In this document: positions 5,591 through 26,022 of the stretch, piece after piece
Layout of the letters: each line of letters begins with the position of its first letter
How positions within the stretch are numbered: position 1 is the first letter of the stretch
NCBI GenBank assembly: GCA_034434835.1
Contig: DAOTXX010000152.1
Span: 5,594-69,593, forward strand
DNA: 64,000 bases
Direction of reading: 5' to 3'
Source: Thermoflexales bacterium
Lineage (GTDB): Bacteria > Chloroflexota > Anaerolineae > Fen-1058
Made by a program: the position numbers and the translations under genes
Notes under the pieces: generated by a model
Told to the model about the DNA's origin: nothing
Databases searched by the model: none
What the model saw: the letters and a program-made list of their open reading frames with translations, nothing else

Positions 5591-6526
5591 TCATGCTCTT
5601 GACGACCTGAACTGTGGATCGCGCTCGAGCGTCAAGCCGAGTCCGGTGTCCAGGTCCACCTTGGGTGTAAAGTTGAGCAATTGCTGCGCTTTGGAGATGT
5701 CAGCACACAGCCGTGAAACGCCGCCGGTCTGGGCGCCGCTGTGCAGCACGTTCACCTTGCGACCGGTAACCCGGCTGATTTTCTCGACTAGCGCATTGAT
5801 GCTGATGTCGGTGCCCGACCCAATGTTGATGATCTGCCGATCTACGTTCCTGGCCGTCGCCGCGGCGACCAAGCCGTCCACCACATCGTCCACATACACG
5901 AAATCGCGGCTCTGTCGCCCATCGCCAAAAACCACCAGGCTTCCCCCGCCGAGCGACTGCTTGAGGAACTGCGGGATGACTGGCGCATGCGCCGGCGGCA
6001 CAGCTTGCCCTGGCCCATACGCATTGAATACGCGCAAGATCACCGTCTCGATGCCCCACAACTTGCCGATCGTACGGACATAGTGCTCGGAAGATACTTT
6101 GCTGGCGGCATAGGGCGAGCCGGGGTCGGGGCTGAAATCTTCACGCACGGGCTGCCGATCCTGCTCGCCGTACACAGCGCCGGACGACGTGAACACGACA
6201 CGCTTGACGCCCGCGTCACGCATCGCTTCCATCACGGCGACCGTCCCACCGACGTTGACCGCGTTATAGTCGCGCGGATAGAGAATGGATTCGGGCACGG
6301 ACACCCGCGCGGCGAGATGATACACACAGTCCACTCCCTGCAGCAACGTCCACAGCTTGGGCACGTCTGTGACATCGCCGCGTGTGAACATGACTTGCGA
6401 ATCGAGCCGCGCCGGATCGCCTGCGGACAGATCGTCGAGCACGCGAACGGTGTGACCGGCACGCGCCAGGCGGTTCGCCAGCGCCGCGCCCAAAAAGCCC
6501 GCGCCGCCTGTGACGAGAAATCTCAT
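5591..6526 (-). CDS. NAD-dependent epimerase/dehydratase (extended SDR, UDP-glucose 4-epimerase-like)
   Basis: TGGAGFLG, HLAA, SSGAVYG, YAASK, RDFVYVDD. Confidence 0.93.
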   Translation of the reverse strand: MRFLVTGGAGFLGAALANRLARAGHTVRVLDDLSAGDPARLDSQVMFTRGDVTDVPKLWTLLQGVDCVYHLAARVSVPESILYPRDYNAVNVGGTVAVMEAMRDAGVKRVVFTSSGAVYGEQDRQPVREDFSPDPGSPYAASKVSSEHYVRTIGKLWGIETVILRVFNAYGPGQAVPPAHAPVIPQFLKQSLGGGSLVVFGDGRQSRDFVYVDDVVDGLVAAATARNVDRQIINIGSGTDISINALVEKISRVTGRKVNVLHSGAQTGGVSRLCADISKAQQLLNFTPKVDLDTGLGLTLERDPQFRSSRA

Positions 6527-6660
6527 GGGATGTCCTGTACTAAATGTCGAGTCTCAAAAGACCATGGATTGATGAGGTGCGGAATGAGATTATAGCACAG
6601 GCACAGTCTCTGTGGAATATGCAATATACCCAACGCGGGCACAAATTGCGCTTTTCTCAC

Positions 6661-6746
6661 GTCAACGAATATTGAACGAATAAACGAATAGGCCCGCTGG
6701 CCGCGCTCATTCGTTGATTCGTTGCGCCGAAGGCGATTCGTTGACA
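6661..6746. repeat. Palindromic element built from ACGAAT repeats
   Basis: GTCAACGAAT...ATTCGTTGAC inverted ends; a related copy lies at about 10888-10962. Confidence 0.6.
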
Positions 6747-6816
6747 GGGATGAGAACGAACACAAAAGCGCAAAACATGACCGTGCTCAGTATAGCAATA
6801 TACCTGCCTTGACATC

Positions 6817-6845
6817 TTGACGCCTCACAGCGAGTGTGATAAAAT
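6817..6845 (+). promoter_or_regulatory. Sigma70-type promoter P1
   Basis: TTGACG-17 bp-TAAAAT with TG in the extended -10 position. Confidence 0.75.
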
Positions 6846-6905
6846 CTGGTCAACTTTGAGGATTATGCCTCAAGATACTTGACCAAGCGAGATGGAGAGC
6901 CGGGC

Positions 6906-7061
6906 ATGAAAGCCAGGCTGCATGTCTATCAATCTATAACCGGATGTTCAGGCTGCCCGATGCAGCAGCCCGATGCGTCGTTTGCCACGCGCTGGGCAGG
7001 CGTCATCGTGCTCAGCCTGGGCAATGCGGACCTTGGCGCCAAAGGAGGTGGGCAGGGCTAA
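6906..7061 (+). CDS. Putative 51-aa leader peptide (MKARLHVYQSITGCSGCP...GGGQG)
   Basis: GGAGAG RBS upstream of the ATG; stop codon lies inside an antiterminator-like hairpin. Could instead be a non-coding structured RNA. Confidence 0.4.
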   Translation: MKARLHVYQSITGCSGCPMQQPDASFATRWAGVIVLSLGNADLGAKGGGQG

Positions 7062-7087
7062 ATCTACCTGCTGCCCATGTTCCTTTT

Positions 7088-7124
7088 GGCGCAAGGCCCC
7101 CTCGGGTCTTGCGCCTTTTTATTT
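7088..7124 (+). terminator. Intrinsic terminator with a competing antiterminator
   Basis: GGCGCAAG-GCCCCCTCGGGT-CTTGCGCC followed by TTTTTATTT; 7031-7046 can pair with 7081-7096. Confidence 0.8.
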
Positions 7125-7151
7125 GTACGTTACAAACCAGCCGTATATGTT
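7123..7151 (+). promoter_or_regulatory. Possible second promoter P2
   Basis: TTGTAC-17 bp-TATGTT. Confidence 0.4.
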
Positions 7152-7295
7152 TTGTTCTATGTTTGAGGTGTTGGCTCAAGACGGCCCCCTCCCTCGCCTT
7201 TCCACCTGCTGGGAGCGGGGGGATGGAGAGGGAGGAGGCGATTGAGCCGGGGCGGGCGGCGAACAGGCCACCAGGCACACCGTCGCCCGCCATGT

Positions 7296-7339
7296 GGAGA
7301 TGCTGGCGCGCGTGAGAGGTTCGATTCCTCTCATCTCCA
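7296..7339 (+). ncRNA. tRNA-like minihelix (acceptor stem plus T arm, no D or anticodon arm)
   Basis: GGAGATG/CATCTCC 7-bp acceptor stem, 12-nt linker, AGAGG-TTCGATT-CCTCT T arm, discriminator A, no encoded CCA. Confidence 0.65.
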
Positions 7340-7342
7340 TCT

Positions 7343-7525
7343 GGGACACGGGTGACCTTCGAGGGTCATCGCCCGAATCGTCGCTTGCGCCCGGCGCTGA
7401 ACCGGGATACACTTGCGGCGAGGGAACTCTGAGTGTTCAGTGGTGACGGGGGCCGGCCCCGCTCGATGTCCCACGATCGTTCTGTATGTTGCGTGCCGCA
7501 GGTCAGCCTGGCCTGCGGCACGCGA
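7343..7525 (+). ncRNA. Multi-branched structured RNA or leader upstream of the HNH gene
   Basis: GGGACA/TGTCCC closes 3-4 hairpins (7343-7472); a ~17-bp hairpin (7488-7526) ends just before the RBS. Confidence 0.45.
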
Positions 7526-7547
7526 CGGAGTAAGAGGTACTGCCAAC

Positions 7548-8036
7548 ATGCATCGAGTGCTTGTCCTCAACGCGACCTATGAGCCGCTCAACACAGTGAG
7601 TATGCCGCGCGCAGTAGCCTTGCTCCTGGCCGACAAAGCCGAGATCGTCGAGGCGGCCGAGGCTCAACTGCGCAGTCAGTATCTCACCCTGCCGATGCCG
7701 CTGGTCATCCGGCTGGTCACCTACGTGCGCATCCCGCGTATGTTGCCGCTGGCCGTCACGCGACGCGGCGTGCTCAAGCGTGACAACTATACCTGCCAGT
7801 ACTGCGGACGGACGCAGGCCTCGGCCGAGCTCACACTCGACCATGTCGTACCGCGCAGTCGGGGCGGCAAGAACGTCTGGGAAAACGTCGTGGCTGCGTG
7901 CAAGCCCTGCAACCATCGCAAGGGCAACCGCACGCCCGGCGAGGCGCATATGCGCCTGCTCCGCCAGCCGTTCCGCCCGCGCTACCTTGCGTTGGTCGTC
8001 GTAGATATGCCGCCTGTGTGGCACAAGTATCTGTAA
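7548..8036 (+). CDS. Stand-alone HNH endonuclease (zinc-finger HNH, McrA-like fold)
   Basis: VLVLNATYEPL N-terminus, RDNYTCQYCG, TLDHVVPRSRGG, WENVVAACKPCNHRKG. Confidence 0.95.
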   Translation: MHRVLVLNATYEPLNTVSMPRAVALLLADKAEIVEAAEAQLRSQYLTLPMPLVIRLVTYVRIPRMLPLAVTRRGVLKRDNYTCQYCGRTQASAELTLDHVVPRSRGGKNVWENVVAACKPCNHRKGNRTPGEAHMRLLRQPFRPRYLALVVVDMPPVWHKYL

Positions 8037-8076
8037 ACTCTCCCTCCCCTGTCCGTTGGGACAGGGGAGGGTTGGA

Positions 8077-9405
8077 ATGAGGGTCATGCGGACATTCTTG
8101 AAGCGTCTATGGATGTTTGCCAAGCTCGCCGTTATGCTGCTCAGCGTGAGCGCGCTGATCGTGCGGGAATACCCGTTGCCGGGCGAGTTTGTCCCGGCGG
8201 TCCATCGCCTGATCGGCAGCGAGATTTTTGACTTTGTCGGTTGGGAAGTTCAAACGCTCACGGCCAAGGGCGCGCAGATGCTCGTGCCGGCATCCAACTA
8301 TCTCGACGAGGCGCGCCGCAAGTCCCTCGTCCTTGATTACATGGACCTAGTGCAGCGCATTGAATTCCTCCAGAATGAGATTGACGGCATCTACGCTGAT
8401 CCCCAGATCACCGATCCGGCGGCCGCCTCCGCCCATCCACGCCAAGAGCTGGCGCGACTGCGCGCGCAGCAAGTCGCTCAACAGACCACCGTCGAAACAA
8501 TCATCGAAGAAAAAGTTTCAATCATCCTCAGCGAGCAAGGCTTTGCCGTCGGCGGGCAGGTGATCCCGCCGCTCAAGTTTCGGCTCACGCCGCTGCCGCA
8601 AATGCTCATCGTCTCGCCGCGCGACCAGATTTATCAGAAGGAAGCCTTTCCGCTCGAAGCAAGCCTCACGACCGACCGCGCCGAAGAGCTCGAGGCTGAG
8701 ATAGATCGGCGTTTTGATGTTTCGTCGCTCGTCGTGTTCATCGGTGGATTGGGATTCTATCCGACGATGCTATTGGAAAGCACGTCATTACCCTGGACGC
8801 TTGAGGTGGCCGCGCACGAGTGGACGCATAACTGGCTGGAATTTCGCCCGCTGGGCATGAACTATTCCAAATCGCCCCAGACGCGCACGATGAACGAGAC
8901 GACGGCCAACATTGTGGGCCAAGAGATCGGCGAAATGACCCTGCACAAGTTTTTCCCTGAGCTGGCGCCACCGCCGCCCCCCACCCCACCCCCCGGCCCC
9001 ACTCCAACCCCGGCCCCGACGCCCACGCGCGATCCGAACCGCTTTGACTTTCGGGCCGAGATGCGCACCACACGCGTGGAGGTAGATCGTCTGCTGGCCG
9101 AAGCGCGCCAGGCCAAAGAAGCGGGAGACCCAACCACGGCGGCTGCGCGGATCAACGAAGCCGAAGAGTACATGCGTCAGCGGCGCAGGTTCTTTGCCGA
9201 GCATGGCTATTCGATCCGCAAGCTGAATCAGGCGTACTTTGCCTTTCACGGCGCTTATGCGGATCAAGTCGGCGCGGCCGGCGAAGACCCGGTCGGCCCG
9301 GCGGTCAAGCGCCTACGCGATCGCAGCCCGTCGCTCAAGGCATTCCTAGATACGATTGCTTCCATGACCACGTTTGAGGAACTCGAGCGGGCGTTGGGAG
9401 AATAG
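8077..9405 (+). CDS. Membrane-anchored hypothetical protein with an HExxH motif (putative zinc peptidase)
   Basis: N-terminal TM helix; AAHEWTH followed by MNETTA; PT-rich linker. Confidence 0.8.
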   Translation: MRVMRTFLKRLWMFAKLAVMLLSVSALIVREYPLPGEFVPAVHRLIGSEIFDFVGWEVQTLTAKGAQMLVPASNYLDEARRKSLVLDYMDLVQRIEFLQNEIDGIYADPQITDPAAASAHPRQELARLRAQQVAQQTTVETIIEEKVSIILSEQGFAVGGQVIPPLKFRLTPLPQMLIVSPRDQIYQKEAFPLEASLTTDRAEELEAEIDRRFDVSSLVVFIGGLGFYPTMLLESTSLPWTLEVAAHEWTHNWLEFRPLGMNYSKSPQTRTMNETTANIVGQEIGEMTLHKFFPELAPPPPPTPPPGPTPTPAPTPTRDPNRFDFRAEMRTTRVEVDRLLAEARQAKEAGDPTTAAARINEAEEYMRQRRRFFAEHGYSIRKLNQAYFAFHGAYADQVGAAGEDPVGPAVKRLRDRSPSLKAFLDTIASMTTFEELERALGE

Positions 9406-23882: not shown

Positions 23883-24578
23883 CTATTCTGCACAGTCTTT
23901 CAACTGCCTTCTGGTGTATACTTCAAGCACTACGTTGGTAATCACTGTCCCAATGGCCGCACTTACAATGAAGGCAATTGCCGCTTTCCGCAGAGCCATC
24001 CAAGCCATTACCATTCCTTCACCCCAGCTTCCAAGTCCCGCCTCGTATTCCATTCTTTCTGCACACCATATTTCGCCGTTAGTATAAGCGATGTAGCTCA
24101 CCAAATTGTTGTATGATGACTCATTAGATGGAATGGAGAAAGAAATGTTCAGGGTCACCTGAAGGACAGGTTGTGCAGGTGGTATTAGGTAGAATCGCGA
24201 ATTCTCAATTACTGTAACACCAGCAACCGGTTTCCCTTGAATAACAGTCATGCCATCTGGCACACAAATCGGCACGATGTCCGTGATTTTAGTTGTTCTC
24301 TTGTCTGTTTCTGCAAATAGGCCAGAGCCCATCTGATATTCTAGCCCAACGGGCGGCGCATTTAACGATGCTACGTAACGCCAGGTTCCATTCCAACCCC
24401 ATACAGCTATATACGACATCACAATTGAACTGAGAAGACTAAGAAATGATACTGTTGCTGCCGCAACTAGCACGGGACGACGGTGATATCTTAACGTCCA
24501 TAATGCCCCGAGTATCACTCCAAGAAGTAGGGGTGGAGTTAGACAAACCAATATGCATGTCGAATACTCTGAGAGCAT
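23883..24578 (-). CDS. Hypothetical membrane protein, lower GC (cassette-like)
   Basis: Hydrophobic segments at both ends, AT-richer codons, bounded by attC-like repeats. Confidence 0.75.
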   Translation of the reverse strand: MLSEYSTCILVCLTPPLLLGVILGALWTLRYHRRPVLVAAATVSFLSLLSSIVMSYIAVWGWNGTWRYVASLNAPPVGLEYQMGSGLFAETDKRTTKITDIVPICVPDGMTVIQGKPVAGVTVIENSRFYLIPPAQPVLQVTLNISFSIPSNESSYNNLVSYIAYTNGEIWCAERMEYEAGLGSWGEGMVMAWMALRKAAIAFIVSAAIGTVITNVVLEVYTRRQLKDCAE

Positions 24579-24625
24579 CTGCCATTTCTCGTGTGCTGGC
24601 TTGTAATTGTCGCGACTGCGGTTGC

Positions 24626-24730
24626 GCCTAACTCGGAATTGAGCCGCGCAAAGCCACATGGCGAACTCTGCAAATCCACTCGCAGCAGCGGAGCGGGCGA
24701 CCGCTTCGCGCCGCCGACCGGAACTGGCAC
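24626..24730 (-). repeat. attC-like repeat with a canonical right end
   Basis: Minus strand ...GCGCG-GCTCAAT-TCCGA-GTTAGGC (L'-spacer-GTTRRRY); left arm degenerate. Confidence 0.65.
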
Positions 24731-24731
24731 A

Positions 24732-24968
24732 TTACAATTCGTCGTATTCCTCTGGCTCTACATTGGCTACCTTTGCCATTGCTTTTCGGAATTTCTGCTT
24801 ATCTCCGCGCTTAGCTCGCTTTCCAATGTATTCTTCGGTCATCAATGCCGATACTTTTTCTGCCAGCGCAAGAGTAATCAACTGGTTGATCGAGATGCTT
24901 TCTTTCGCGGCTAACTGCCGTGCGCTATCGTGCAGGGAATGGGGCAAACGAAGGCTAATCGTACTCAT
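24732..24968 (-). CDS. Ribbon-helix-helix antitoxin-like protein
   Basis: MSTISLRLPHSLHDSARQLAAKESISINQLITLALAEK; ATGA overlap with the PIN gene. Confidence 0.9.
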   Translation of the reverse strand: MSTISLRLPHSLHDSARQLAAKESISINQLITLALAEKVSALMTEEYIGKRAKRGDKQKFRKAMAKVANVEPEEYDEL

Positions 24969-25393
24969 GGCAACTCTCCAATCTTTTGCAGAAACTCTCT
25001 CGGAGTTATTATGCTGATACCGAACTGTTCGACTCCTTCAAAATCACGTTGGTTGTGCGTGACGATAAAATCGCATCTTGCACTGACTGCCAATTCCAAG
25101 ACCATATCATCTTTGGGGTCTTTGAGGAACGGACGCCATAGATAAAAGACCGCATGGTGACTGGCAACCACACAGATATAATCGAGAATATGGTCAATAT
25201 CACGAGCAGTTAGGGCTATTTGGCCTATAAGCCTTTTGGCTGCCTCTTCATATTCGAGAACAAGCGGCACGGAGACGTTCGCCACAAACTTGCCGCTATC
25301 AATCAGTGCGAGCAGCTTGTAGGAAGCGCCGCGGCGTGAACGGAGGGCGGCTACCAAGACACTGGTATCAATGACAATCTGAGGCGTGTTCAT
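24965..25393 (-). CDS. PIN-domain toxin-like protein
   Basis: IVIDTSVLVAAL, LVLEYEE, DPKDDMVLELA, IVTHNQRDF. Confidence 0.93.
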   Translation of the reverse strand: MNTPQIVIDTSVLVAALRSRRGASYKLLALIDSGKFVANVSVPLVLEYEEAAKRLIGQIALTARDIDHILDYICVVASHHAVFYLWRPFLKDPKDDMVLELAVSARCDFIVTHNQRDFEGVEQFGISIITPREFLQKIGELP

Positions 25394-25396
25394 ATC

Positions 25397-25428
25397 GGTA
25401 TCATATACGATACCAAGGCATTTGTCAA
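25397..25428 (-). promoter_or_regulatory. TA promoter with overlapping palindromic operator (leaderless mRNA)
   Basis: TTGACA-17 bp-TATGAT; GGTATC-N6-GATACC spans the -10 box; ATG lies 6 nt after the -10. Confidence 0.8.
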
Positions 25429-25510
25429 TGAGGTGTGACCAAATCCGGTTGATGCGTAGTGGCGACCCTTGTGGTCGCCCGCGTCAAGGCTGGCTTTGGG
25501 GTCGTGCGTC

Positions 25511-25611
25511 TTCCAACCGGTAACGGCTGAGCCGCGCAAAGCCACATGGCAACTCTGCGACCCCGCTTGTGGGAGATGGGCAGGCGACCGCCCCACTGAC
25601 CATAACTAGGC
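25511..25611 (-). repeat. Degenerate attC-like repeat
   Basis: Shares GCAGAGTT(C)GCCATGTGGCTTTGCGCGGCTCA with 24626-24730. Confidence 0.55.
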
Positions 25612-25647
25612 CGATCCGAAACATGTGCAGATGCATCCGAATCCGGC

Positions 25648-26022
25648 TCAAAACGGAGCAATCACCCAGCGCCCATAGGCGACGAAGGCGGCCAAAGCGA
25701 AAAGAACAAGGCCGACCAAGCTGTTAGGGCTTTCGCGGCAGGCGATGTGGAACCCAACCGCCACCAGCATCATCAGGGCCAGCAGCGCCGCTGACCAGGG
25801 CGTCAGCCAGGTCAAAATCCCGGTCACGGCAGGCAGGATCAGAGTGACCCCACCGAGAAACGCACAGAAGGCGATCAAAGTTAACAGGGGCCGTGTTGCC
25901 GCGCCGAGCCGCTGTATTCCTTTTTGCATTTTCGTCTCATCCGGGCGCAAACCGTGCGTGTAAGCAACTGAGACGAATTTAATGGCGAGCACTATTTGCA
26001 AAGCCCACAAGACAACATTCAT
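25648..26022 (-). CDS. DoxX-family membrane protein
   Basis: MNVVLWALQIVLA..., LILPAVTGILTWLTPWSAALLALMM, AFVAYGRW. Confidence 0.85.
   Translation of the reverse strand: MNVVLWALQIVLAIKFVSVAYTHGLRPDETKMQKGIQRLGAATRPLLTLIAFCAFLGGVTLILPAVTGILTWLTPWSAALLALMMLVAVGFHIACRESPNSLVGLVLFALAAFVAYGRWVIAPF

Follow-up and report, generated by a model that had tools for sequence, protein, structure and literature searches.

The window is the whole 64,000-nucleotide stretch of DNA that we analyzed. A 1-kb gap in it, between an epimerase gene and a gene for an HNH endonuclease, contains an element with the shape of the acceptor and T arms of a tRNA. We call this element the minihelix. The features in and around the gap are the following (related lineages carry L numbers below):

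5591-6526, minus strand: epimerase gene
6817-6845: sigma-70-like promoter, upstream of the small open reading frame
6906-7061, plus strand: small conserved open reading frame (52-aa homologue)
7088-7115, plus strand: conserved strong terminator, after the small open reading frame and just before the RNA
~7166-7472, plus strand: conserved structured RNA (the host RNA)
7296-7339, plus strand: minihelix, inside the host RNA
7489-7525, plus strand: GC-rich hairpin
7527-7537, plus strand: Shine-Dalgarno sequences of the HNH gene
7548-8036, plus strand: HNH endonuclease gene, 162 aa, with Pfam HNH_5 and HNH at residues 83-137
8056-9405, plus strand: gene for a 449-aa protein, downstream of the HNH gene

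The product of the small open reading frame ends in AKGGGQ and is ~55% identical to its counterparts in L001 and L003. Relatives carry an HTH_17 (excisionase-like) gene in this region and the window does not. The 449-aa protein, 52-75% identical in L093, L094, and L096, matches no Pfam or NCBIfam family; its sequence includes an HExxH motif (AAHEWTHNW) and a proline-rich linker. Further along the window, the GC content dips to 0.515 at 24001-26000, versus ~0.60 over the rest.

Shape and conservation of the minihelix

Read directly from the sequence, 7296-7339 (plus strand) is GGAGATG-CTGGCGCGCGTG-AGAGG-TTCGATT-CCTCT-CATCTCC-A. It divides into these parts, all on the plus strand:

7296-7302 with 7332-7338: 5' and 3' strands of a perfect 7-bp acceptor-like stem
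7303-7314: linker of 12 nt
7315-7319 with 7327-7331: T stem of 5 bp
7320-7326: T loop of 7 nt, with T54, T55, C56, G57, and A58
7339: discriminator A

An earlier, sequence-only reading of this DNA had described the acceptor stem, the T arm, the discriminator A, the 12-nt linker, and an A-U rather than G-U pair at 3:70, and each of them is there. In a canonical tRNA, too, the acceptor stem has 7 bp, the T stem 5 bp, and the T loop 7 nt (T54-T55-C56-R57-A58), and there is a discriminator. A cloverleaf with D and anticodon arms is absent, as only 12 nt separate the 5' acceptor strand from the T stem. The last linker nucleotide, G7314, can also pair with C7332, which gives an alternative T stem of 6 bp.

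We scanned both strands of the window for a Watson-Crick stem of 7 bp that is joined, through a linker of 3-45 nt, to a Watson-Crick T stem of 5 bp with a TTCRANN loop. The minihelix was the single site, and only one of 300 dinucleotide shuffles contained at least one match (mean 0.003). The isolated 44-mer folds unexceptionally (-17 kcal/mol, z = -1.6), and the minimum-energy fold of 7165-7480 recovers the minihelix together with all the helices described below (z = -3.95). The minihelix is a genuine tRNA-shaped element, more than a chance match.

Could the element be charged, as a mini-tRNA or as a tmRNA-like acceptor piece? Like the tRNA-like domain of tmRNA, it combines an acceptor and a T arm without an anticodon arm, and its 3' strand reads ...TCTCCA as in many tmRNA and tRNA-Ala ends. 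ARAGORN, however, found no tRNA or tmRNA gene in the 64-kb window, and no Rfam 15 family reached its gathering score anywhere in it. Rfam searches in E-value mode, run on the window and on the minimal version of the RNA from L099, gave microRNA-like hairpin matches at chance level and tmRNA models at 10.7-16 bits. The alignment to the tmRNA model RF00023 (10.7 bits; 16 for the permuted model) uses an upstream GGGGATG strand and stays far under the gathering score of 47 bits. This route to a tmRNA was rejected: the GGGGATG strand falls in the variable, non-conserved P1b hairpin of the host RNA. Moreover, the element lacks a CCA, a tag reading frame, and pseudoknots. The third pair is A3-U70 in all lineages but one, and the discriminator, A or G, is always a purine. 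The one exception, L096 (4564-4771, minus strand, an Anaerolineae MAG), carries the alanine identity pair G3.U70 in place of A3-U70 and is a point in favor of charging. We consider a chargeable or tmRNA-like function extremely unlikely.

Constraint is concentrated in the stems and the loop. Among 12 sequences of the window clade, 25 of the 29 columns in the minihelix stems and loop are invariant, versus 1 of the 41 linker columns. That column is part of a conserved GG in a single-stranded stretch of the linker. Across the clade the linker is 11-40 nt long and frequently houses a lineage-specific hairpin; judged from the alignment, it is a hypervariable insertion site. Position 48 is a G where position 7 is not, and vice versa. 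This alternation keeps C66 paired and leaves 12 of the 14 distinct sequences with a 12-bp stack; L013, with an A at position 66, and L092, with an A6/C67 mismatch, fall short. The predicted stack of acceptor and T stem is thus continuous and carries a T loop, as would be required of a minihelix substrate of RNase P and RNase Z. Other variation is limited to U6-A67 or U6.G67 in the acceptor stem, one G.U in the T stem, and a change of U55 to C in the T loop of four lineages (L005, L018, L019, and L096). The covariance-model search that the sequence-only reading had proposed did recover homologues; the covariation expected of the stems was missing, since they are near-invariant apart from these wobbles and the switch between positions 7 and 48 opposite C66. 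This invariance exceeds what RNase P and RNase Z demand and hints at recognition of a specific sequence.

The missing D and anticodon arms might also mark a non-functional relic, either a tRNA pseudogene in decay or the scar that an integrated element leaves from a tRNA 3' end, and the excisionase-like gene upstream in relatives would suit such an origin. A relic, though, would hardly keep 25 of 29 columns invariant while its linker and the adjacent helices diverge, nor a matching 5' strand in all lineages. Related lineages, at least 15 of them and known from metagenomes or MAGs, carry the minihelix-bearing element at the same syntenic position, and synteny is kept from Thermoflexales to the window clade. 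The window lacks a tRNA or tmRNA from which a scar could derive, the seven flanking ORFs checked include no integrase, and the flanking genes are of housekeeping type. A relic is therefore very unlikely, and the earlier argument that the element is not an att-site scar stands.

The host RNA and its variable slot

The minihelix is one module within a conserved structured RNA of ~305 nt (window ~7166-7472, plus strand) that occurs in Anaerolineae-type bacteria. The sequence-only reading had recognized the right shape but had missed that it is a part of this larger RNA. In an alignment of the upstream regions, the conserved block runs from GTGTTGGCTCAAGACGG (7168) to CGATGTCC(C) (7472) in all close relatives, and the flanks diverge. 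The RNA stops 75 nt short of the HNH gene, which is encoded on the same strand. Members of the family are built from an invariant motif at the 5' end (GTGTTGGCTCAAGACGG together with helix P1), a slot of variable content, and a 3' domain of 130 nt with several helices. The architecture, derived from RNAalifold and pair counting, comprises (plus strand):

7166-7169 (5' strand AGGT) with 7339-7342 (ATCT): helix P0, predicted; it would close a four-way junction of the 5' domain
7168-7184: invariant 5' motif GTGTTGGCTCAAGACGG, the sharp 5' edge of conservation
7173-7179 (GGCTCAA) with 7242-7248 (TTGAGCC): helix P1, with one-sided changes only
7184-7239: P1b, a variable hairpin within P1, ~20 to 56 nt long, with compensatory changes at 4 pairs
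7251-7291: hairpin P2, in the window clade only, with compensatory GC to AU and CG to UA changes in 3 sequences each
7343-7472: 3' domain, with a closing helix GGGACACG/CGATGTCCC around inner helices

The closing helix of the 3' domain surrounds four helical elements: hairpin H1 (7351-7370), a nested arm with three helices, and another two hairpins. The motif GTGTTGGCTCAAGACGG is invariant at 16 of its 17 columns (12 sequences) and is also present in L029, L093, L097, and L099, where homologues of the 3' domain were detected as well. P0 is weakly supported: its four pairs are kept by one-sided changes (RNAalifold, 12 sequences), and one of them has changed from G:C to A:T in L093.

Compensatory changes support the fold. 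We fitted a 17-sequence alignment of the minihelix/slot and the 3' domain to a covariance model, R1. Compensatory changes occur at 29 of the 51 pairs, and 97.6% of the cells are paired, versus 39-55% when the partners are slid; pair counts based on MAFFT agree in direction. Model R1 finds the RNA in all close relatives and, more weakly, in L029, L093, L097/L098, and L099. On these comparative grounds, the host RNA defines a structured family with good support that is missing from Rfam 15; it might act as a stable non-coding RNA or serve as a leader.

Several other readings of this region were rejected. An open reading frame at 7294-7446 is not coding, because the linker lengths of 11, 23, 26, 31, 35, 36, and 40 nt disrupt its frame. 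The conserved internal loop of P1 (GACG / GA) does not match the K-turn consensus on inspection. A viral origin was also discarded: the IMG/VR matches to the 5' 16-mer are unrelated, and model R1 detects nothing in them. In L018 (~90-185) and L096, ~3 tandem copies of ACGTTTCACGTATT lie in the spacer that separates the upstream terminator from the 5' end of the RNA.

The content of the slot, located between P1 and the 3' domain, changes from lineage to lineage:

L099 (Thermoflexales MAG): empty
L093 (Thermoflexales MAG): hairpin of 6 bp
L097: hairpin of 15 bp
Window clade: P2 and the T-loop minihelix
L029 (metagenomic relative): several hairpins, then a complete tRNA-Ala(UGC)

The tRNA-Ala(UGC) of L029 (606-680) is canonical in its G3:U70 pair, D arm, anticodon arm, and T arm. 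Its flanks are homologous to the host RNA, with the 5' motif from ~384 and the 3' domain at ~688-823. Thus, the slot of L029 holds a tRNA that needs RNase P and 3' excision, and the minihelix occupies that same place. The plain hairpin or empty slot of L093, L097, and L099 shows that the core RNA is independent of the minihelix. Further HNH homologues at 69-82% identity added no slot variants. L029 also contains a second T-arm-like sequence, GAGGTTCGAATCCTC (255-269), ~130 nt upstream of its 5' motif, at which ARAGORN calls no tRNA.

These slot variants bear on a purely structural explanation, in which the minihelix is a peripheral helix, P3, that is never cleaved and whose T-loop cap engages in a tertiary contact, for example with the GG in its bulge or with another site in the RNA. 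T loops are common tertiary modules of large RNAs. The conservation of the bulge GG fits such a contact, a plain helix takes the same slot in L093 and L097, and P0 would turn the acceptor stem into an arm of a four-way junction without a free end. A structural helix alone does not explain the exact tRNA geometry of 7+5 (or 6+6) bp followed by a purine, the genuine tRNA at this slot in L029, or the repeated occurrence of HNH genes downstream of tRNAs (see below). We regard it as possible but unlikely.

The HNH gene and its link to the RNA

The placement of the element in the leader of the HNH gene, as put forward in the sequence-only reading, holds: the RNA lies directly upstream of this gene. 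It is 5' of an HNH gene, on the same strand, in all of the 20+ loci found. A genome-wide pattern search that made no use of the HNH gene returned four true matches, in Anaerolineae or Thermoflexales MAGs, and in all four the RNA is directly 5' of HNH. The RNA is present in one copy in the window and gave one pattern match per recovered genome stretch. In the window, the stretch from the RNA to the HNH start codon gave neither a sigma-70-like promoter nor a terminator in a scan. Likewise, no promoter for the host RNA itself passed the scan of the window; the spacer from the upstream terminator to the RNA varies from 9 to ~95 nt among lineages. In L018, L019, and L096, the HNH gene begins ~20 nt past the RNA. 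In L029, a tRNA-Lys, a tRNA-His, a terminator, and a promoter lie between the two. HNH homologues are abundant in Chloroflexota metagenomes, and the closest ones (83-90% identity) keep synteny.

The 7489-7525 hairpin, between the RNA and the HNH ribosome-binding site, is near-perfect, with 17 bp, a G.U at both ends, and a minimal loop. It is lineage-specific: relatives have unrelated hairpins or none there. The purine strands of the minihelix (GGAGAT and AGAGG) resemble the bipartite Shine-Dalgarno region GGAGTAAGAGG (7527-7537), so that the pyrimidine strand CCTCTCATCTCC is able to pair with either. Pairing of CCTCTCATCTCC with GGAGTAAGAGG is possible in the window, but we treat it as a coincidence because the Shine-Dalgarno regions differ in relatives.

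By its best PDB matches, the HNH domain is nearest to those of IscB and Cas9d, and residues 71-132 match the NCBIfam model guided_IscB (E = 4.9e-18). The N-terminal domain has no match in Pfam, NCBIfam, or a PDB profile search, and residues 1-64 have a pLDDT <50 in an AlphaFold model of the protein. An hhalign comparison with the PLMP domain of DtIsrB (sequence from PMC9581776) aligned the PLMP motif in register at a non-significant E of 0.28. In IsrB, the PLMP domain contacts 3' hairpins of the omega-RNA (PMC9581776).

These resemblances raise another explanation: the minihelix could be a tRNA mimic that is bound sequence-specifically by the N-terminal domain of the HNH protein or by a tRNA-binding enzyme, and the RNA a partner or regulator of the nuclease, as omega-RNA is. 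This would account for stems that are invariant while other helices of the same sequences covary, for the constant position of the RNA directly 5' of HNH, including in the four matches found independently of HNH, and for the in-register PLMP alignment next to an HNH domain of the IscB/Cas9d kind. The locus also resembles HEARO/omega-RNA loci (IscB, IsrB) in having a ~300-nt structured RNA directly 5' of an IscB-type HNH gene on the same strand. The differences are substantial, however. The PLMP alignment is not significant. HEARO (RF02033) has no match up to E 10 on 6500-8100 or on the minimal L099 version of the RNA. There is no RuvC domain and no evident guide segment. Many HNH orthologues, at 53-76% identity, have no RNA next to them, those at 69-76% being in other gene contexts, and L093, L097, and L099 have the RNA without a minihelix. 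The locus, with one copy in the window and one match per recovered genome stretch, is in conserved chromosomal synteny, unlike an insertion sequence such as the IS200/IS605 elements that carry omega-RNA, usually in several copies, and the flanking ORFs checked include no TnpA. We therefore judge recognition of a mimic by a protein distinctly unlikely.

Distant HNH orthologues lie behind true tRNA genes. In at least 25 loci, with HNH proteins 59-68% identical to that of the window, tRNA genes precede the HNH gene on its own strand by 21-230 nt. At least six tRNA contexts are represented: Gln-Met (the commonest), His, Leu(UAA), Val, Pro-Thr, and Lys-His. Some tRNA-HNH gaps are just 21-26 nt, which leaves no space for a promoter. 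Expression of HNH genes from tRNA-type transcripts thus looks like a recurring design. The frequency of tRNAs before HNH in L021-L074 is far above chance.

The same arrangement, with the HNH gene behind true tRNAs in many Chloroflexota and behind the minihelix here, would also follow if the protein recognized the tRNA elbow. The ~305-nt RNA could then be the dedicated partner of an IshB-like nuclease, with an HNH domain and an IF3-N/PLMP-like N-terminus. IshB is a PLMP plus HNH protein, and of these two parts the IscB-type HNH domain is present here and the PLMP alignment has an E of 0.28. We see this as a long shot. If true, the IscB/Cas9 ribonucleoproteins would have here a minimal relative that is associated with tRNAs and owes its maturation to the tRNA-processing enzymes of the host.

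The minihelix as a candidate processing module

The reading that we prefer, and to which we give about half of our confidence, is that the minihelix is a tRNA-derived processing module for RNase P and RNase Z. Its embedding in the host RNA and its slot homology are seen in the comparison of lineages; descent from a tRNA and cleavage are what we infer from them. Because the minihelix lies at the exact site of the L029 tRNA-Ala, it is most likely a stripped-down tRNA that was retained as a cutting signal. What remains of the tRNA would be its acceptor stem and T arm, a single strand with a GG, and a discriminator that is a purine; the D and anticodon arms would have been lost. The module would have been retained because the tRNA-processing enzymes of the host recognize the 12-bp acceptor/T-arm stack and the T-loop elbow. 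The conservation pattern of the minihelix fits what RNase P, RNase Z, and the CCA-adding enzyme use as determinants. RNase P would cut 5' of G7296, and RNase Z, or an equivalent 3' pathway, after A7339. Such cleavage would detach the 5' domain (7168-7295) and leave a 3' domain starting at 7340, either as the structured 5' terminus of the HNH transcript or as a small RNA of its own. The sequence-only reading had suggested a processing signal. That suggestion has gained comparative support, from the tRNA-Ala in the slot of L029 and from the tRNA-HNH loci, and the cleavage itself is putative.

Some observations argue against processing. CCA is not encoded, and the trailer of the minihelix is TCT or CCT. 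In the predicted P0, both the discriminator and the trailer would be paired to the 5' end of the RNA, a possible obstacle to processing. The module is missing from three members of the family (L093, L097, and L099), so that cutting must be dispensable for the core RNA. The near-invariance of the stem sequences, beyond what RNase P or RNase Z demands, counts against this reading as well. The A6/C67 mismatch of L092 and the C at position 55 in four lineages are also unfavorable. As for descent, the case comes from the single locus L029, and independent capture of a tRNA by L029 is possible.

How does such a module compare with known systems? Acceptor/T-arm minihelices are in vitro model substrates of RNase P, RNase Z, and the CCA-adding enzyme. 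The minihelix shares with them a coaxial 12-bp stack of 7 + 5 bp, a 7-nt T loop, and a purine discriminator. It differs in being natural, in lying inside a 305-nt RNA, in having a bulge of 11-40 nt between the stems, and in its 3' trailer, which is perhaps paired with the 5' end of the RNA.

tRNA-like processing signals include mascRNA at the 3' end of MALAT1, the t-elements of plant mitochondria, and RNase P sites in bacterial polycistronic mRNAs. The tRNA-like element of GUT15 is another such signal in a longer transcript (PMC6152437). As in these examples, a tRNA-shaped element that does not decode lies in a larger RNA, whose ends tRNA-processing enzymes could set. The examples, however, are mostly eukaryotic or organellar and have a cloverleaf, whereas the minihelix is bacterial, has no D or anticodon arm, and sits between two conserved structured domains.

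Large non-coding RNAs, GOLLD among them, can host or adjoin tRNA genes. GOLLD has been reported with tRNA clusters (PMC6582537). Like GOLLD, the host RNA is conserved and non-coding, and one of its regions varies and can accommodate a tRNA gene, as in L029. It is much smaller, though, with another sequence and structure and no Rfam match, and it is chromosomal and syntenic rather than prophage-borne. Bacterial Y RNAs of the YrlA type carry a tRNA-like domain. They resemble the host RNA in being non-coding RNAs with a mimic of the T arm and acceptor; the host RNA has another architecture and no Rfam match, and no Ro (Rsr) gene is present in the seven annotated flanking ORFs.

Taken together, these comparisons separate what is known from what is new. 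tRNA-like processing elements within longer RNAs are already known. New are the host RNA itself, which has no entry in Rfam 15, and a bacterial version with two arms, placed in a conserved RNA at a slot whose content varies: in relatives the slot holds a full tRNA, holds a plain hairpin, or is empty. If the processing reading is true, a bacterial chromosomal tRNA has been cut down to its minimal enzyme-recognition core and kept in another conserved RNA. Within the family the whole series is preserved, from the full tRNA through the minihelix and the plain hairpin to the empty slot. The host RNA is also tightly linked to a nuclease whose HNH domain is nearest to those of IscB and Cas9d, and the placement of tRNAs before HNH genes could bear on the expression or the targets of small HNH proteins related to the ancestor of Cas9.
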